Assembly: GCA_963706285.1 (NCBI GenBank)
Contig: CAVPLU010000010.1
Location: forward strand, 1 to 64,000
Source of the DNA: Candidatus Bathyarchaeota archaeon
Lineage (GTDB): Archaea; Thermoproteota; Bathyarchaeia; 40CM-2-53-6
Direction of reading: 5' to 3'
Length of the DNA stretch: 64,000 nt
Shown here: positions 46,612 to 55,244 of the stretch, one piece after another
Layout: each line of letters opens with the position of its first letter
Position numbering within the stretch: the stretch's first letter is position 1
Made by a program: the position numbers and the translations under genes
Notes under the pieces: generated by a model
Told to the model about the DNA's origin: nothing
Seen by the model: the letters and a program-made list of their open reading frames with translations, nothing else
Database searches by the model: none

Positions 46612-47612
46612 ATGATAGTGAAAGAAGTCTGGCTGCAATCAGAAACCGATCTCGAAGAGAACTCCGCCAGAGATCGACAATGTGATTGTGAAGGACAAGA
46701 CTAGAGATGGCAGGCGCGTGGTCAGACACAATATCCTAGAGGAACTCAAGCATGATCAGAAACTCATTCCTTGGATAACGATAGAATCTATGGGCGATGT
46801 GAATCTTGCCGCGAAGGCAGCCGAGCTAGGTGCAAAGGACATCATATTGTCAGGCAAGAACAACGCTTTCCCCGTAGGCATCGCTCTGGAGAAAGTAATT
46901 GCGGAGACCCAGAGATTCGGAACGAATCTGCATGCAAGCGTGAAGTCATTTGAAGAAATGCTAGCAGCTTCCCGAACATTGGATGTTGGAGTCAGCCTCG
47001 TGGTTAACGATGCCTCATTAGCTAGAATGTTCAAGGACTATTTTGCTCCGATGAAATTCGATCTAATCGCGACGCCGGTGAAGTCCGTGGATAGAGTTGG
47101 CGCCTGCTGGAGATCCTGCATCGACACAGGAGATATCATGAGCGTCGGCGAAGGAATGCTCGTAGGATCGACCTCCAGCGCATACTTTCTGGTTCATGCG
47201 GAAGTTCATCGGAACTGAGTATACTGGAAAAAGGGAATGGCGCTGCAACGCAGGCCCAGTATCGAACTACATCATCATCGACAAGCCCGCTGGGGCCGGA
47301 ATCAAGACGAAATATCTAAGCGAACTCAAATGCGGAGACAGCGTTCTCACCGTAGACAAAAACGGGAACGCTAGAAGAACAGTCGTAAACAGAAACAAGA
47401 TAGAGTACCGCCCCGCAGTCAAAATAACCACGGAAGTCGAGGGAAAGAGATACTCGGTGCTGCTGCAGGGCGAGAAGAGTATCCATCTCACCACGAAGGA
47501 TGGTAAGTGTGTCTCTGTTCTAGACAGCCTAGGCCAGGACGTCCTAATGTATCACACAAAAGGCGGAATGCATTTCGGAACCAAAGTTGAAGAAGGCATC
47601 TTCGAATACTAG
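46612..47612 (+). CDS. aroB': 3-dehydroquinate synthase II (frameshifts near 46670 and 47210)
   Basis: RSCIDT...GEGMLVGS...FLVHAE, CNAGPV, KYLSEL, KIEYRP, HFG. Confidence 0.88.
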
Positions 47613-47678: not shown

Positions 47679-48254
47679 CTATCGCTTTTTGCCCTTCGCG
47701 GACTTCTTCGAGAAACCATGTATGCCTATTCTTTTGTGAAGATCCCAATATTCGCCCTGATTGTAAACGAATGGAGATACTTTCTTGAAATCGATTCGTC
47801 CCTTCTTGTCAAGCACCTTCTTGTCAACGTGAACACGGACGATCTTGCCAAGGAACAGATCGTGACTCCCTAACAAAATCTTCTCGCTAAGAAGACACTC
47901 CATATTCACCGGGCACTCTTTGATTAGCGGAGGTTTGACTTTCTGAGCACGTTCCGGTGTGAGCCCTGCTTCGGAGAATTTGTTCACATCTCTACCTGAG
48001 ACGAGCCCGCAGAAGTCCACCGCGCGAAGCATTTCCTTTGTTGGAATATTCACAACGAACTCTGCAGACCCTTCGATTAGACTGTACGATTGCCTCTCGG
48101 GCCTGATGCCTAACCCGATCATGGGTGGTACAGAACAGACTACCCCTGACCATGCCAAGCTGATTATGTCGGGCTTTCCGTCCGGACCCACGCAAGTGAC
48201 AAGAACGACCGGGCAAGGGAATAGAGCGGCCCACGGGGCCTTTTTCAATTTCAT
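47679..48254 (-). CDS. Flavin reductase-like (DIM6/NTAB, flavoredoxin) protein
   Basis: PCPVVLV, EFVVNIP, SGRDVNKF, ECPVNMEC, GSHDLF. Confidence 0.9.
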   Translation of the reverse strand: MKLKKAPWAALFPCPVVLVTCVGPDGKPDIISLAWSGVVCSVPPMIGLGIRPERQSYSLIEGSAEFVVNIPTKEMLRAVDFCGLVSGRDVNKFSEAGLTPERAQKVKPPLIKECPVNMECLLSEKILLGSHDLFLGKIVRVHVDKKVLDKKGRIDFKKVSPFVYNQGEYWDLHKRIGIHGFSKKSAKGKKR

Positions 48255-48478
48255 GAACGAACGCTGTGTAATACCTCTACTTGATCTTTACCTGCACATT
48301 CGTTCCAAGATTCGCGGCAAAACTGCCGGTTCTGGCGAGTTTGTCTCTGGATCTGGGTCTCTTGGTGCGCATCACCACCCCGGTTCTCAGGTCCTCTAAC
48401 ATTTATCGACTAGGAGAAGCGGCGATTCTCGCGTTCGCTCCTCCATGGGATGCTTAGAATGTTTCGCGGGGTGGTTGT

Positions 48479-48997
48479 GTGCTTAAGGGTACACATCTGA
48501 GAAGGGTGAATGCTTATTGGCGGTGCTCTGTTCGCGTGTCAGTTCTCATCATAGCGCATCTTGAGCGGATTGCTGTTAGGGAGCATTGGATGCTGTCAGA
48601 TCTGGCTAGGATGCTGATCTGCCTAGGCGCGGCTGGCACCTATCTGAGATTGGGAGATCCGGAAGTCTCGGACAGGTTCAAGACGTTGGCGAGCTTGGGT
48701 GGAGCACTCACCGCATTAGATACAACTTTGGGTCGAGTGAGTCGTCGCCATCACGCCTCTCGTGGGCTGGCTAGATCAGAATTGTTAGCTCTACGCCTAC
48801 CAACGGGTCTCACAAGCCTCATCACCACATATGCGAGGACTAGTGGGAGATCACGAAACGAAGCCTTGACGATGTTTCTGGAGCGCGGCTTAATCATCTA
48901 CCTGAAAGCAGAAAAGATACTACTAGAAACAATCCAATCAGTCGAAGCCGAGTCCGTCAAGAGAATGAAACCAGATGAAGCAGTCGCTGGTGTATGA
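48479..48997 (+). CDS. Tandem ribbon-helix-helix DNA-binding protein (putative)
   Basis: Two RHH-like units: SVRVS..IIAHLERIA.....LSDLARMLI and ALRLP..LTSLITTYA...GRSRNEAL..FLERG. Confidence 0.55.
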   Translation: MLKGTHLRRVNAYWRCSVRVSVLIIAHLERIAVREHWMLSDLARMLICLGAAGTYLRLGDPEVSDRFKTLASLGGALTALDTTLGRVSRRHHASRGLARSELLALRLPTGLTSLITTYARTSGRSRNEALTMFLERGLIIYLKAEKILLETIQSVEAESVKRMKPDEAVAGV

Positions 48998-49459
48998 TTT
49001 GCAGGAGCCGTTCCGTTGGATAGCGGATGTTACTGTGATGGAAGCGTTCGAGTCCGGAGTGTTGGATTTGCCGGATTTCTATTTCACAGGTGACGATTAC
49101 AGGTACCGCTTTGAGCCTGAGGCTAGACAGCGATTCATCGATCTCATACGGACACGATTCAACACAGGCGTGAAGTACAAAGATCGAACTATGAAGCGGG
49201 ATACGGTCATCGAGAAGAAGGCAGTAGAGCTTGGCAGTCACCTTACAGGCAGCAACAGCAGGCTCGATTTTTCGGAACCTTCTCCCGATATGCATCGAGC
49301 AGACGATAAGGAGCTGCGGAGACGAATCCTCAGATCTATCTCGATCGAGACGCACGAACGCTTGGAATTGGAAGAAGCACCCTGCACTGCTTGAAACGTA
49401 GGGCGAATGAATCTCGTCCGTTCAAGATCTACAGGCCGGTTTGGAATATACTCGATTAA
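48975..49459 (+). pseudogene. cas1: 3' fragment of casposase-type (stand-alone) Cas1 with C-terminal HTH
   Basis: KQSLVYDLQEPFRW Cas1 motif, LDFSEPSP, DDKELRRRIL; after a frameshift, ARTLGIGRSTLHCLKRRANESRPFKIYRPV (stop at 49457-49459). The N-terminal part including the catalytic His is missing. Confidence 0.8.
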
Positions 49460-50081
49460 TGGAGAAGAACCAAGTGAAGAGAAATCGCAAAAACGCATCT
49501 GCTCAAGGCAATGAGGACGAATAAAGCCACAGCATTAGTCGGACTCTGCTTCCGAGCACGATGTGGCGAAGATCTGTCTGGATTGACCAGAAACTATCAA
49601 GCGTCTGGCGGACGTCCGTGGTACATTCACGGTGTATCTGGCATATCTTCTTCAAAGGAGAATACATCAATGGAACGTCTAGAAGAATGTAACTTGCACA
49701 GCTGCGCAGAAATTGGTGCCAAAAACGCGCTGGAATGGCTCAGACGTACCAAAGGTCGAAAAGTATCTTGCGAGCTACGCAAGAGATCGCCAACCACAGA
49801 AGCAGCGCGACAGACGGTGCCGGCTAAACGTACGGATCTCGCCGTGAAGATCTGCATCAACTCATCAAGTGACTCGGCATTCGGCATACTGCTCGTAGCG
49901 TCAGTTCTATCGAACAGCGTTTGAACTCATAGCGAGCAAGGCAGGAAGCAAAACCGGGCTTGCGATACTTGACAAGAATCCGGTAAGACGGGACGGGAGA
50001 GATTCTACTTGAGCCGAAAGATCGTCGCGTGTGTATTGGACTCAGCGTCACGCTGCGAATCACTCGTTGGGTCACCCGACT

Positions 50082-50104
50082 TGCGGGGAGCAGGGATTTG
50101 AAAC
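50082..50104 (-). repeat. Degenerate tRNA-3'-end-like repeat (copy A)
   Basis: Minus strand GTTTCAAATCCCTGCTCCCCGCA; one extra base and no CCA compared with the other copies. Confidence 0.45.
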
Positions 50105-50890
50105 AAGGAGAACCGCTGGTGTGTGTACGAACTTGATTGCAGGTAAACGGAATGTGGATCGGGAGCGGTCACTATTTGGACCTTAGGCTCGCTCATTGGC
50201 AGGTACAGGATGCTGAGAAGCTTGATCTTGCTGGACTCTCGGATGGTTTTCGCATTCGCGGTTTTCTTCATGCACTCGGAAGGATGGTCTATGACGTCGC
50301 ATACTCGATCGGATATCAATACGCCCTGGTACCCAGCAATTTCCTTTTCGACTGGGTGCATCGCGATTTGCTCTGTCTTATCTCCTGACATGGAGGTGGA
50401 TTGTCAGGGCATACCGAGACAAGTTCACGCGTTCTTTGCATGCTGACGGTGACCAGGATGAATCTGCCGTGGCAGATGTTGTCAAGGTCGCACACGGTAT
50501 CAAATCGAAGTGACTTCGTAGTTGGAATCATGCAGAACGTGGTCAACTCGAGCGAATTGCTGGTCTCTGTGGAACAATTTCCTTGGAAAGAAGATTCAAG
50601 ATTGGACGAACTAGTCAAGACCTTCTCAAACAACATCGCGGCAAGTATTCTACACTGGCGACGGCTATATCAGTCTCCGTCTCCATTATCACCCCAAGCA
50701 CCAATGCCGATCTGGAACAATCCAACGTAAAGTTCGTCAATCTTGTCCTAGAAATCGCAGCAGGCAAATATCTCTTTTAGGTCTTTGCCATCTAGGACGA
50801 TCATTCTGCGTTCTCCTTGCCAGGCTACCTTGACGGCCCCCAAGCACGCTGCAACCCATCCCCGGACAGGCGTTTTGTGTGTGGTACGCT

Positions 50891-51017
50891 TGGTGCGAGC
50901 ACCCGAATTTGAACCGTCGTGGTTGAGGTAGTGTGTGTGATACCCTTGGTGCGAGCATCGGAAATTGAACCCTTGATCGTCGTCGCCGCTCTTGGTGCGG
51001 TCATCCAAATTTGGACC
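50891..51017 (-). repeat. Mini-array of three 25-bp tRNA-3'-end-like repeats with 31- and 21-bp spacers
   Basis: Plus strand TGGTGCGAGCACCCGAATTTGAACC (50891-50915), TGGTGCGAGCATCGGAAATTGAACC (50947-50971), TGGTGCGGTCATCCAAATTTGGACC (50993-51017). Confidence 0.8.
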
Positions 51018-51281
51018 GTCGTTCAGGCGTTGATTTTCAGTGCTTGCACGCACCAGTCAATGCAAACGCGACAACGAGTCGTTCATCTGGGTGGTGAGTG
51101 GAAATCCTCATTCTACTAGTCTGAGCTTTGAGTTCATACCAATACTGAGATTAACACCCGTGCTCCAATGCTGGCAATAGCTCTCTATCGCATGGAACAC
51201 ATCTTGCCAATGTCGCCCAGAAGTTTGTTAGGGATGGATGAAGGACTGACAGCGAGAGCCGCCATCGATGGGAGGTAGCCT

Positions 51282-52256
51282 ATGACACAGAGCGGTTCTA
51301 GAATAGCGGTCTTCGCGGCCATCATCGGCAACCTGATCATCGCGATCATCAAGTTCATTGCGGCGGCAATCACCGGCTCATCGGCCATGATTTCCGAGGG
51401 CATCCACTCGCTCGTCGATACGGGAAACGGTGTCCTCGTGCTGCTCGGAATGAACCGCGCCAAGCAGCCTGCCGATGAAACCCACCCGTTCGGCTACGGC
51501 AAGTCGCTCTACTTCTGGACGCACATCGTGGCGATCTCCATCTTCGGCATCGGTGGTGGCATGTCGCTGTACGAGGGCATCTCGCACATTCGCCACGTCG
51601 CACCGGACGCCGAGATGGGCGATCCCACGGCGGCCTACATCGTGCTCGCCATCTCGCTCCTGGTCGAGGGCGGATCATTCACGGTGGCCATCAAGCAGTT
51701 CCTGCAGGCCAAGGGCGATATGGGCGCCTGGCAGTTCATCAAGCAGTCGAAGGACCCGAGTCTCTACACGGTAGTGCTCGAGGACAGCGCGGCCATGCTC
51801 GGTCTCATCTTCGCGTTCCTCGGGATCTTCCTCGGCCACCTGTTCAACAATCCGTATCTCGACGGCGCAGCATCGATCGCAATCGGCCTGCTGCTGATGA
51901 GCGTGGCCGGGATCCTCGCGTCGCGGACCAAGGGTCTGCTGCTGGGCGAGGGCGTGAACCCCGACGAGCTCGCGGACATCCGGCGGCGCGTGGAGTCGGA
52001 TCCGGCGGTCGAGCGGGCCGGCGACATCCTCACCATGTACATGGGCCCGCACGATCTGCTCGTGAACATGGGGGTGTGCTTCGTTGCAGGTACCACGGCC
52101 GAGCAGATGCACGAGGCGATCCGCCGCATTGAAGCCGACCTGCGCAGCGCATACCCGGAGACCAACCGCGTCTACATCGAAGCCGAGTCGCTGCCGGTCG
52201 AGGAGACTGAGGGCTCTCTGAAAAAGCGTGAGGCTCGGTCATCTCAGATTGTGTGA
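51282..52256 (+). CDS. Cation diffusion facilitator (CDF) transporter, GC-rich, probably horizontally acquired
   Basis: SSAMISEGIHSLVDTGN, HPFGYGK, EDSAA, YLDGAAS; third codon positions almost all G/C, unlike neighbouring genes. Confidence 0.93.
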   Translation: MTQSGSRIAVFAAIIGNLIIAIIKFIAAAITGSSAMISEGIHSLVDTGNGVLVLLGMNRAKQPADETHPFGYGKSLYFWTHIVAISIFGIGGGMSLYEGISHIRHVAPDAEMGDPTAAYIVLAISLLVEGGSFTVAIKQFLQAKGDMGAWQFIKQSKDPSLYTVVLEDSAAMLGLIFAFLGIFLGHLFNNPYLDGAASIAIGLLLMSVAGILASRTKGLLLGEGVNPDELADIRRRVESDPAVERAGDILTMYMGPHDLLVNMGVCFVAGTTAEQMHEAIRRIEADLRSAYPETNRVYIEAESLPVEETEGSLKKREARSSQIV

Positions 52257-52540
52257 GGAATAGCCTAGCCTCATATGATTTCCATTTACAGTGCGTCGCT
52301 AGACTGATTGAATGAGATGTTTCTTCAATTTCCAAATTCAATAACGATATAGATGTAGAGGATTCTTCTACGCTTAGTTTTTTCACAAATCTATGTGCAG
52401 AAAGACAGGATTTGCGATTTCTAGTCTGTCTAATACTATTACACATATTTCTGGCGGAGAATTCTGCTTTCTAAGATAGTCTCTTCTGGCATCTAGGGGG
52501 CGCGTTTGGGAACAGAATTAGGAATTGTGTGTGAGTATGC

Positions 52541-52565
52541 TGGTGCGGGCGACCGGATTTGAACC
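52541..52565 (-). mobile_element. tRNA 3'-end fragment (att-site / target-duplication-like) at the island's right boundary
   Basis: Minus strand GGTTCAAATCCGGTCGCCCGCACCA = T-loop, 3' T-stem, acceptor strand, A73 and CCA. The rest of the tRNA is absent. Confidence 0.75.
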
Positions 52566-52650
52566 ATAACGAATGGAGGAGCGTCATGCGTCTTCGCCGA
52601 AGTCTAGGTCCCGGACTAGGTGAAGCCGAGAAAGTGCAAGGCGTTCTGAA

Positions 52651-54246
52651 TTACCTAGCCAGTTCCACTAGGTCGCTCCAGACTTTAGCGGGCTTCCAGT
52701 TGTAGACGATTGTCTTCAGTCTCGTCATTTCTTCTATGCTGTATCCTATTCCTTCCCTACCGAGTCCAGAGTCTTTGTTTCCGCCGAAAGGATAGTAGCC
52801 GACGCCGTGGCGGGGAGCCGCGTTTATCGTTATCTCTCCTTCTTCAAGTCTCTTTGCGACTTTTCTCGCGAGGTTAAGGTTGAAAGTGAAGACACACGAA
52901 TCCAAGCCATACTTCGACTTGTTCGTCAGGTCAATCGCTTCATCTACATTCTTCACAGACATTATCGGGATTATGGGACCGAATGTTTCTTCCCACATGA
53001 TGTTCGCGTTTGTAGGAACTGGGTAGAGCACCGTTGGATAGTAGTAGTTACCTTCGAACTTCGCTCCTACAAGCGCCTTGGCGCCTTTGTCGATTGCATC
53101 AGTAACGAGGCCATGTACCCTTTCAACGGCGCCTGCGATTGATGAGTGGTCCAACTTTGACTGTGGGGTCGCGTGGGTCGCCAACCTTGTACGTTCCAGC
53201 CTCTTCCACGATCTTCTCAACAAACGTTTCTACAATATTATGCTCAACGAGGACTCGGCTTACTGCGTCACATCTCTGCCCGCTGTAGCTGAGAGCAGCC
53301 TTTCGCGATCTCTTTCACCGCAAGATCAAGGTCAGCGTCTCCGAGAACTATTGCGCATCCTTTCCCGCCCAATTCCATGTGCAGTTTCTTGATGCCTGCA
53401 ACTCGGGCCAGCCTCTTTCCGACTTCGGTGCTTCCCGTGAAACTGATCATGTCAATCTTCTCGCGGCCGGCTAGATACTCGCCGATTGGTCCCCTTCCTG
53501 TCACGACATTGAGTGTGCCCGCCGGAAGTCCAGCTTTTTCCAGAAGTCGAGCGAACATGAGAAAGGAGAGTGGATCTTGACTTGCTGGTTTCACAACGAC
53601 CGAATTTCCCGCGAGAAGTGCCGGGATCACTTTGGTTGAGGTAATGTAGAGTGGATAATTGAAAGGTGAAATCGCTAAGACGACCCCCAGCGGTTCTCTT
53701 AGTACGTCTGCGGAGGTACCTACGGTCTCGTCTGACCAATCGCCTGGGATGTGTTCTCCTCTGATCTTGCTGTAGTCCTCCGGGGTGAGCTTCAGGCGCT
53801 CGGCCGTGGATCTCACTTCACCCTTTGCATTAGCCAATGTCTTGCCTGCTTCCAGCGACAGAATATGGACAAAGGAGTCTTCGTTGTCGAGCAGCAACTC
53901 GCGCGTGCGCAAGGAAGATCTCGATCTTCTCGACTGCGGGGACGGTCCTGATGGCGTTTCTGTGAGTGTCTGATGACTCGACCGCTTGGTCCGCTTCTCG
54001 TTCTGAAGCGTTCGGGATGGTCGCAACTAGACCATTATCGATTGGACTCCGGACTTCGATACGTTGCTCCAGCGAGGTCCATTTTCCATCAACTAGCATT
54101 TTGAATTCCGGACAACCGGACGCCGCAAGTGAGTAGATTGGGTTGAAGATATCTCCGAGTTTGTTCGCTTTCGCAACTTCCGTCGTATGCAATTCCTCAT
54201 CGTACGGACGGTGGGTGGTCGATATAGGTGACTCCCTACAGCACAT
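52651..54246 (-). CDS. gapN: Aldehyde dehydrogenase, archaeal non-phosphorylating GAPN-like (split by frameshifts)
   Basis: IPGDWS...REPLGVVLAISPFNYPL, FTGSTEVG, ELGGK, EETFGP, RHGVGYYPFGG.KDSG.GREG. Confidence 0.8.
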
Positions 54247-54317
54247 GCTCTCAAGGTTGAGCTCGGATCGGAAGTCAGCGACCTCCGAGAATCTTCCTGC
54301 CTCTCCCTGAGAGGTAT

Positions 54318-55244
54318 CTAGGCCTGGTGGTTGCTTCTCGATGATCCTGTCAGATAGACTCCGATGATGACGAGAGCTCCGCCGAGGAGTAGGAAGTATG
54401 TCATCTTCTCCCCGAGGAATAGGTAGGAGAGAATTGCTGTTGGTATTGGTATGGCGTACATTGCGACGAGGAGTTTAGTGATATCGATCTCTTTTATCGC
54501 GCGGTTCCAGAGCATGTAAGCGATCACGGAGCTCGGTATCGCTAGGTAGACGATGCTAAGCCACGTCATCCATGATGAATTCAGAACGAGGTTTGTGCGG
54601 CCTTCAACGAGCGCGAATGGAATCAAGTACAACGTGCCGAGCAGAAACACGCAAGACGTGGCAACGGCGCTGGAGTAACCATGGAGTATTCTCTTGCCGA
54701 GAATAGAATAGGCTGCCCAGCAGAAGGCAGCGGCAACCATAAGCAACACTCCAACTGGCTCAAACAAGTTCAGCGACACCGTTGAAGCGTTTCCTATCGT
54801 TATCACCGTGACTCCAACAAATGCTAGGAGGACACCAGCTGTCTTCCCTCGAGTGAGAGGTTCTCTGAGAAACAATGCAGAAAGTAGCATGGCGAATATG
54901 GCGTGGAGATTGATTATGATAGAGCCCTCTGTAGCTGAGATGAGTTGCAGCGAGTAGAACTGGAAAACGTAGAGAAGCGTGACGCCTGTCAGAGCGAGAG
55001 CTGAGAACTGCACAAAATCGCTGGTCAGAGCGATTCTCATTGCTTCTCTTGAGGATCGAGCGTATACGGTGGGTATGATCAGAATGGGGGCGGCTACTGC
55101 GAATCTTGCTAAAGCCAGCGTTACTGGTGGAATCTCCTCCAACGCTATCCTGATGAAGATGAACGACGCTGACCAGATGAATACGATCGAGCTAACTAGT
55201 GCGAATGAAACGAGGTTTCTGTTGGCCGACGTGTTTCTTCCCAT
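54318..55244 (-). CDS. EamA/DMT family transporter
   Basis: IWSASF...PPVTLALARF, FLREP, FLGEK; about 10 TMs. Confidence 0.9.
   Translation of the reverse strand: MGRNTSANRNLVSFALVSSIVFIWSASFIFIRIALEEIPPVTLALARFAVAAPILIIPTVYARSSREAMRIALTSDFVQFSALALTGVTLLYVFQFYSLQLISATEGSIIINLHAIFAMLLSALFLREPLTRGKTAGVLLAFVGVTVITIGNASTVSLNLFEPVGVLLMVAAAFCWAAYSILGKRILHGYSSAVATSCVFLLGTLYLIPFALVEGRTNLVLNSSWMTWLSIVYLAIPSSVIAYMLWNRAIKEIDITKLLVAMYAIPIPTAILSYLFLGEKMTYFLLLGGALVIIGVYLTGSSRSNHQA

Follow-up and report, generated by a model that had tools for sequence, protein, structure and literature searches.

A tRNA-end-like repeat family of Bathyarchaeia as the probable target, and end component, of casposase-carrying elements

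We analysed a 64,000-nucleotide stretch of DNA from a Candidatus Bathyarchaeota archaeon (assembly GCA_963706285.1, contig CAVPLU010000010.1, positions 1 to 64,000; hereafter the window), in which an earlier note, made from the sequence alone, had described five co-oriented repeats resembling the 3' end of a tRNA close to a fragment of a casposase-type cas1 gene. The CRISPR adaptation machinery is held to descend from casposons, of which to our knowledge only a few are known, all of them with a family B polymerase and at one or a few sites per genome. Our comparisons of the window with its own genome, with related genomes and with metagenomic loci make it probable that a casposase recognises the repeat units and inserts at them, that the elements which this enzyme moves also contain the site in their inverted ends, and that serial insertions of these elements have been stacked. 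We read the stack in the window as a record of serial Cas1-type transposition and not as an immune array, and the elements, by their gene content and ends, as a previously undescribed casposon variant without the family B polymerase (PolB) and with MCM-like and primase-like genes. Below, G000 is the genome, that of a soil archaeon, which holds the window (2.13 Mb in 21 contigs, 51% GC, 89% complete), G001 to G009 and so on are its relatives, C-numbers are G000 contigs and L-numbers are metagenomic loci.

Under the mechanism that we propose, the site would mimic the 3' end of a tRNA-Leu gene, with the T-loop GGTTCAAAT, six variable bases, GCC, and CGCA-CCA followed by 7 bases, and integration would proceed through a 14-bp staggered cut starting at CGCA, so that the 14-mer would be duplicated on both sides of the inserted element (as is shown below for 11 related elements). 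The elements end in CACACACA, CACCCCCC or CGACGACGAAAA, and many of their ends hold another, inward-pointing site about 25-35 bp inside, so that each resident element would supply fresh targets. Later elements would then insert into earlier ends, the modules stacking head to tail on one side with a period of about 45-70 bp and gene-sized cargo being left between ends on the other side. Target copies in the ends would thus lead to tens of tRNA-end-like sites per genome, to tandem arrays and to non-autonomous carriers of cargo.

Repeat units, casposase and bounded elements

A pattern scan for GGTYCAAWT-N9-CGCACCA found four exact units in the window, all on the minus strand (Table 1), compared with a mean of 0.08 matches expected from shuffled sequence and with none of 100 shuffles giving four. 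Three of them form a tandem trio, separated by 31 and 21 bp. A fifth copy, which is degenerate (GTTTCAAAT...CCCCGCA at 50082-50106), was seen by eye and in a one-mismatch scan and was missed by an nhmmer profile even at E<=10, which upholds the earlier count of five co-oriented units. The conserved unit extends beyond 25 bp and reads (terminus CACACACA or CGACGACGAAAA)-linker-ACGAC-GGTTCAAAT-N6-GCY-CGCACCA-N7. What looks like short “spacers” in the trio is conserved terminal and linker sequence of element ends and not captured DNA; of the repeat-spacer-repeat structure proposed earlier, the short intervals and the gene-sized cargo are present, but the spacers as captured DNA are not. Tandem Repeats Finder returned 0 rows for the trio and the mean column identity across five aligned modules was 47%, so the copies are too divergent for that program and the array is not CRISPR-like. 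No tRNA was found in the window by ARAGORN, and Rfam matched nothing in it at the gathering score or at E<=5. A tRNA-like fold or other RNA structure was considered and rejected, as in most copies no T-stem forms between the upstream bases and the variable six and Rfam was silent; with this stem lost, the unit does not fold like a tRNA.

The Cas1 piece in the window is separated by about 0.7 kb from the degenerate unit and by 1.5 kb from the trio; it matches only positions 226-280 of the 283 of Pfam Cas_Cas1 (E 2.3e-6), and no further Cas1 frames were found upstream of it. It is 72% identical over 118 amino acids to residues 244-361 of the full-length Cas1 of G009 and barely similar to the other full-length Cas1 of the genus, in G006, and its sequence identifies it as a dead C-terminal remnant. 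A full-length member of the same family (P0003, 82% identical to the G009 Cas1) aligned over its whole length, including the C-terminal helix-turn-helix (HTH) region, with PDB 6OPM at E 5.7e-77, compared with E 1.3e-23 for the best CRISPR Cas1. According to PMC6977970, 6OPM is the Methanosarcina mazei casposase, and by this homology the Cas1 family of the elements is a casposase, as the earlier note had supposed for the remnant; NCBIfam gave generic Cas1 names only. In metagenomes the family comprises 1054 proteins at E<=0.001, the best 120 clusters having 71-100% identity and being mostly about 400-415 aa long.

Eighty loci around the casposase gene were fetched from 358 confirmed metagenomic stretches and scanned with a profile derived from G000. 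Units were present in 46 of the 80, with 128 in all over 759 kb, which is roughly eightfold the G000 density (47 in 2.13 Mb). They face inward on both sides of the casposase gene, with 36 plus and 11 minus units upstream and 12 plus and 69 minus units downstream (Fisher value 3e-12, a rough guide only as the units are not independent). The loci are also related to one another (L216 and L217 are the same element, and L156, L162 and L166 are close), so that none of these counts is one of independent events. Searched for CGCACC-type 14-mers that recur exactly and in direct orientation, the loci yielded 11 distinct casposase-carrying segments of 8.7-14.1 kb (L156, L159, L162, L166, L185, L201, L207, L209, L213, L216 and L231), flanked by exact direct repeats of 15-29 bp whose shared core is the 14-mer CGCACCA+7. 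This core starts with CGCACCA in all 11, the left repeat is in each case preceded by the GGTTCAAAT-N6-GCC motif, and the casposase gene lies inside every one of the elements thus bounded by a target-site duplication (TSD). Their terminal inverted repeats (TIRs), of about 20-60 bp, read CACACACA in 8 elements and CACCCCCC in 2, the remaining one having a C-run/A-run; five elements are oriented one way to the site and six the other, and an inward-facing, A+B-like copy of the site, read by eye, lies within 80 nt of 13 of the 22 ends. Elements without a casposase that have the same duplications also occur (1.3 kb and 1.8 kb), and CACACA follows exactly 14 nt after CGCA in 51 of the 90 regex-defined units of the casposase loci. 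Together with the polarity of the units, these duplications uphold the core of the earlier suggestion, serial Cas1-driven insertion at a tRNA-derived site.

PolB was absent among the 10 open reading frames (ORFs) of L156 and, in the bounded elements, among the 8 largest ORFs other than Cas1, and no ORF in L162, L201, L207, L209, L213 or L231 exceeds 426 aa; an HNH nuclease was not found in the elements either. Conserved in about 27 loci is an operon (e.g. L157:6877-8421) that runs divergently from the casposase gene and comprises three genes, for an MCM-like ATPase, for a product of about 125-185 aa and for a small primase-like protein. The operon protein with a Walker-A motif, modelled with a pLDDT of 82, was matched by Foldseek to MCM ATPase domains at E 2.7e-7, with a TMq of about 0.6. 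The small protein has DxD, HGxH and D motifs and a weak likeness to primase-polymerase domains, with E 0.015 for Pfam AEP-TOTE and E 0.014 over 77 aligned columns for the polymerase domain of LigD, and is tentatively called primase-like; the operon is a possible replication module, replacing the polymerase of classical casposons. Downstream of the casposase the cargo varies, with DarT-Macro, beta-helix and cyclase-TPR proteins, and a PHROGs search on ten conserved neighbours matched one unnamed family only. In three loci (e.g. L156:10230-11414) a DarT-Macro fusion, an ADP-ribosyltransferase toxin with its antidote domain, is found directly downstream of the casposase, the slot after which holds varied, partly defence-like cargo.

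The profile, built with nhmmer from 18 G000 copies, matched G000 47 times at E<=0.01; 2 matches are true tRNA ends and about 45 are non-tRNA copies. The copies are intergenic and dispersed, and cluster in islands with accessory genes in variable regions (C3 23-65 kb, C9 3-36 kb, C16, C10 near 140 kb, C4 173-180 kb and C6 near 69 kb). They include 3 tandem doublets and 4 triplets that repeat every 46-68 bp, and many have in front of them their own last 14-15 bases in inverted orientation. In 16 of 30 units CACACA follows exactly 14 nt after CGCA; one TSD-flanked, non-autonomous element of 1.6 kb occupies C3:30963-32598. Among 31 related genomes the pattern was matched 5-63 times in eight of the ten genomes of the genus and 0-3 times in most others, and a reversed control pattern 0 times in all genomes searched. 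The motif is a genome- and genus-wide family, the trio escapes Tandem Repeats Finder and no evidence of immune function was found, so the local proto-CRISPR array proposed earlier is not borne out. Neither is the motif scattered without a link to cas1, which the earlier note had named as grounds for doubt: the copies are genome-wide, yet linked to Cas1. The correlation of units with Cas1 across the 31 relatives is weak because metagenome-assembled genomes lack or fragment such regions, and it was the metagenomic loci that decided the matter.

A comparison with the tRNA set of the genome, which the earlier note had called for, gave a divided answer: the unit, in which CCA is encoded, resembles the 3' end of a tRNA-Leu(GAG)-like gene at C4:358700 (anticodon read by eye, with no program call), but the three true tRNA ends in G000 are unoccupied, having no CACACA 14 nt after CGCA. 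ARAGORN at default settings found 3 tRNAs in G000 and more in intron mode, and Rfam RF00005 found 16; nearly all of the tRNA genes are intron-bearing, several with long introns, and most encode CCA, and some tRNA-Leu-like genes were missed by both programs. Split-tRNA halves, considered from the mere 3 ARAGORN tRNAs, were ruled out as the tRNAs are intron-rich. A near-identical 50-bp stretch (C6:70336-70400, C9:95402-95454, C13:93365-93413, and at many places in relatives) proved not to be a new repeat, being the 3' half of tRNA-Leu/Ser-type genes without encoded CCA.

The composite insertion in the window

The window holds a composite insertion (Table 1) between a flavin reductase gene (47679-48254, minus strand) and an aldehyde dehydrogenase gene (52651-54246, minus strand), which are only about 110 bp apart in G001 (about 93% identical). 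It appears to be a decayed stack made up of four modules, a further, degenerate module, two orphan 14-mers, cation-efflux cargo and a truncated casposase. Seen on the minus strand, the CGACGACG-type module (52600-52534) would supply the 14-mer to which the CACACACAATTCC-ended segment is joined; CACACA (52528-52533) directly follows this 14-mer, and CACACACAATTCC also opens the TSD-flanked 1.6-kb element on C3. The segment carries a cation-efflux (CDF) gene (51282-52256, plus strand; Pfam Cation_efflux E 1.1e-34) with a GC content of 0.587 against about 0.51 in its surroundings. This gene was probably acquired recently, and the segment is likely to be a cargo-carrying non-autonomous element. 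Many short wetland-metagenome contigs match the cation-efflux gene at about 88-92% and end at the gene borders.

Table 1. Features of the repeat locus in the window, from high to low coordinates after the first two rows (positions within the window)
Feature	Position	Strand	Basis and details
Four exact repeat units	50891-50915, 50947-50971, 50993-51017, 52541-52565	-	pattern match
Composite insertion of decayed casposon-like ends and cargo	48295-52603		break in homology with G001 from about 52604 to about 48294
Degenerate end/target module, CGACGACG type	52534-52600	-	nhmmer E 4.6e-9; A motif GGTTCAAAT 52557-52565; 14-bp target CGCACCAGCATACT 52534-52547
Segment starting with terminus CACACACAATTCC and carrying the CDF gene	51063-52533	-	Pfam; GC; terminus shared with C3 element
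14-mer CGCACCAGTCAATG, orientation opposite to the units	51049-51062	+	resembles verified right ends
Trio module 1	50986-51048	-	A motif 51009-51017; 14-mer CGCACCAAGAGCGG 50986-50999; nhmmer E 2.4e-7
Trio module 2	50940-50985	-	terminus-like CGACGACGATCAAG; A motif 50963-50971; 14-mer CGCACCAAGGGTAT 50940-50953; E 2e-11
Trio module 3	50878-50939	-	terminus CACACACAC and linker; A motif 50907-50915; 14-mer CGCACCAAGCGTAC 50884-50897; E 4.2e-12
Degenerate module ACACACAC...GTTTCAAAT...CCCCGCAAG	50082-50135	-	one-mismatch scan and module alignment; unseen by nhmmer
Casposase remnant, C-terminal part only	48969-49394	+	corresponds to residues 244-361 in a full length of about 405 aa
Segment with a 172-179-aa ORF in place of the casposase N-terminus	48372-48997	+	recurs at G000 C14:88924-89602 and C9:1-933
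14-mer CGCACCAAGAGACC preceded by ...GGTGGTGATG	48356-48369	-	read as right terminus and target duplication

The inverted 14-mer at 51049-51062 can be read as the target duplication after the right terminus of an element on its left; such a 14-mer abutting a terminus is also present at verified right ends of the metagenomic elements, and no partner copy of CGCACCAGTCAATG was found in the window. The trio mixes terminus types, with every module junction lying exactly 14 nt after the previous CGCA, and the next terminus, CACACA (50878-50883), follows the 14-mer of module 3. At the other end of the insertion, the 14-mer at 48356-48369 is identical to that of module 1 in 11 of 14 bases and may pair with it. 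The ORF of 172-179 aa that stands in place of the casposase N-terminus had no family above threshold. Its junction (as a 172-aa ORF) with the truncated casposase C-terminus is present in three genomic copies with 78-97% amino acid identity (48372-49051 in the window, C14:88924-89602 and C9:1-933), so the broken casposase gene was itself copied, possibly within a non-autonomous element.

A second, 93%-identical copy of window positions 52527-54848 lies at C3:41146-43462, its homology ending on one side in CACACA following a unit and a gene fragment being joined on the other straight after CGCACCAAGGTACC; since homology breaks at the unit edges, unit borders are breakpoints. At the orthologous sites of other arrays conserved genes stop at the arrays, and a clean empty site was not recovered; public reads (Logan contigs of 4 runs, word share at most 0.14) gave short pieces from related organisms and repeat-to-repeat joints. 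A 2.3-kb copy of the aldehyde dehydrogenase gene and a truncated EamA transporter gene, lying between two units at C3:41060-43445, looks like host DNA captured as cargo. In the window the aldehyde dehydrogenase gene is split into three ORFs and that for 3-dehydroquinate synthase II (46682-47612) into two, the second copy of the dehydrogenase (C3:41819-43342) being a single 507-aa ORF, and the splits reflect either assembly indels or decay of the native-locus copy.

Weighing of the evidence and other explanations

Several observations weigh against the units being both target and building block of casposase-moved elements. Within the window, an exact 14-mer pair flanking any segment was not found (the best has 11 of 14 bases), so the order of events cannot be reconstructed; a CGCA-type target is missing from the outermost junction, at about 52600; and the “empty” site of G001 has 68 unmatched bases of its own and is thus not a clean empty site. 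Among the verified metagenomic ends, 9 of 22 are without an inner target copy, and the nested-insertion origin of the tandem modules is our inference. In G000 only fragments of a casposase were found and no full-length gene, and insertion into a true tRNA gene was not seen. Four unit-rich genomes of the genus, G001-G004, gave no Cas1 match, their copies being either relics or dependent on an unassembled casposase.

It is conceivable, though unlikely, that the trio and the other doublets and triplets are multi-site ends, in which two or three casposase-binding modules arose by internal duplication, and that they are not insertion scars. Several transposase sites per end are known from other transposons, doublets are common in the casposase loci (22 doublets and 2 triplets compared with 78 single units), and L166 looks symmetrical, both ends of its TSD-flanked element having a second CACACA terminus after the inner 14-mer. 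However, CACACA and CGACGACG termini are mixed in one array, all module junctions fall exactly at the integration point, L159 and L193 are truly nested or tandem elements sharing 14-mers, and the trio copies are divergent, as the alignment and the silence of Tandem Repeats Finder indicate; nor did the trio prove to be a simple local duplication, a possibility that the earlier note had left standing.

We regard it as very unlikely that the units are a generic intergenic repeat of another transposase, like miniature inverted-repeat transposable elements (MITEs) or repetitive extragenic palindromic (REP) sequences, which came to lie near Cas1 through shared variable islands. The strong polarity of the units to the casposase gene, the exact 14-bp duplications bounding the casposase-carrying elements, and a 14-bp length and CGCA start that are the published casposase signature all speak for the casposase, and no other transposase family recurs near the units: a hunt for a recombinase through paralogues near units and Pfam scans found only cargo (peroxidase, KARI, MFS transporter, beta-propeller surface proteins and M6 peptidase). 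What such a repeat would explain well is the intergenic, dispersed placing of the copies in accessory-gene islands and their abundance in several genomes without Cas1.

A working or nascent CRISPR-like memory, transcribed and used, is suggested by the formal analogy of a 14-bp repeat duplicated with each insertion beside a conserved upstream motif and by array periods of 43-72 bp, and an origin of CRISPR repeats from casposon ends or target duplications has been proposed in reviews (PMC6452270). This is nevertheless highly improbable for the window, where the short intervals are conserved end sequence and not unique DNA, effector genes, Cas2, other Cas families and an intact Cas1 are absent among the ORFs scanned at 43.5-54 kb, and Rfam gave no match.

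Att sites of tyrosine-integrase elements serially integrated at a tRNA gene are an extremely unlikely origin, for although the units look like a tRNA 3' end, the unit-rich island at C3 23-65 kb starts 50 bp after a tRNA gene and arrays of such elements are described in archaea (PMC6563490), the unit next to that tRNA differs from the tRNA's own 3' end, the flanks are 14-bp duplications beside inverted termini with a casposase inside, and the window is without an intact tRNA or, as the earlier note had observed, a tyrosine integrase, PF00589 having 0 matches in the whole of G000 at 89% completeness.

Relation to known systems

The insertion of casposase-carrying elements at the units can be compared most closely with the Family 2 casposons of M. 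mazei (MetMaz-C1). As described in PMC4779613, PMC6977970 and PMC10359463, the M. mazei TSD is 14 bp long and opens with CGCA, the four bases with which the tRNA-Leu gene ends, the target requires the TSD and 30 bp of upstream tRNA sequence, the HTH domain of the casposase is essential, and the casposons occur in both orientations and as tandem insertions, with solo TIRs left behind. Our elements share with them a full-length casposase homologue with an HTH, a 14-bp TSD starting with CGCA at a site resembling a tRNA-Leu 3' end, a site that includes about 25-30 bp upstream of the TSD, and inverted ends found in both orientations, in tandem and as solo ends. They differ in having no PolB or HNH nuclease that we could find and a conserved MCM-like ATPase and small primase-like protein, in termini that are usually CACACACA or C-runs, in ends that carry target copies, in the use of dispersed pseudo-tRNA targets (about 45 per genome) and not tRNA genes, and in their Bathyarchaeia host. 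The published MetMaz-C1 end motif, GGGATATAGGTAA, does stand directly after the 14-mer in L156 (184), L166 (283) and G000 C4:177731, and with one mismatch (GGGATATAGGTGA) at C14:602; a second, more canonical casposon end type seems, from these motifs, to use the same sites. The family B polymerase is called universal in casposons in PMC6452270. In the literature we found no description of polymerase-less casposase elements or of target-carrying ends, although supplementary TIR/TSD tables might hold similar ends, and what was found on casposons and Bathyarchaeota describes no such element.

CRISPR arrays with Cas1-Cas2 resemble the present arrays in using a Cas1-family enzyme, in duplicating the target with each insertion, in having an upstream motif and in using one site repeatedly. 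The repeat here is a divergent 14 bp, however, the intervals are element ends or whole elements and not protospacers, and no Cas2 or effector was found among the scanned ORFs; near-identical repeats of 24-47 bp with unique spacers of similar length, as in CRISPR, are not what the window array contains. With Tn7-type transposons, an analogy also drawn in PMC4779613, the elements share a strong site specificity from which islands of stacked elements arise, some of them dead, together with cargo genes, but the enzyme family and its chemistry differ and here the elements carry the site themselves, so that the site multiplies. Archaeal tRNA-targeting integrative elements such as the thaumarchaeal integrated mobile genetic elements likewise use the 3' part of a tRNA and form arrays (PMC6563490), and differ in that our elements have no tyrosine recombinase, make short duplications beside inverted ends and use targets that are not functional tRNA genes. 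Integrons are not indicated, as the units are not palindromes of the attC kind and no tyrosine recombinase such as IntI was found in G000.

A further reading, which we consider quite doubtful, makes the elements a present-day model of how casposons became CRISPR arrays: with its own target in its ends, a polymerase-less casposase element would focus insertion beside a fixed leader-like motif and duplicate a 14-bp repeat on each occasion, and very short inserts, namely single end modules of about 45-70 bp, would be added one after another to growing arrays. The elements offer a natural system for the study of repeated Cas1-type insertion at one motif, and the family is abundant, a relative being encoded in 358 metagenomic stretches and more than 120 distinct protein clusters having 71-84% identity. 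A casposon family of this kind would account for puzzling repeats of Bathyarchaeia that mark the borders of variable, cargo-rich DNA.

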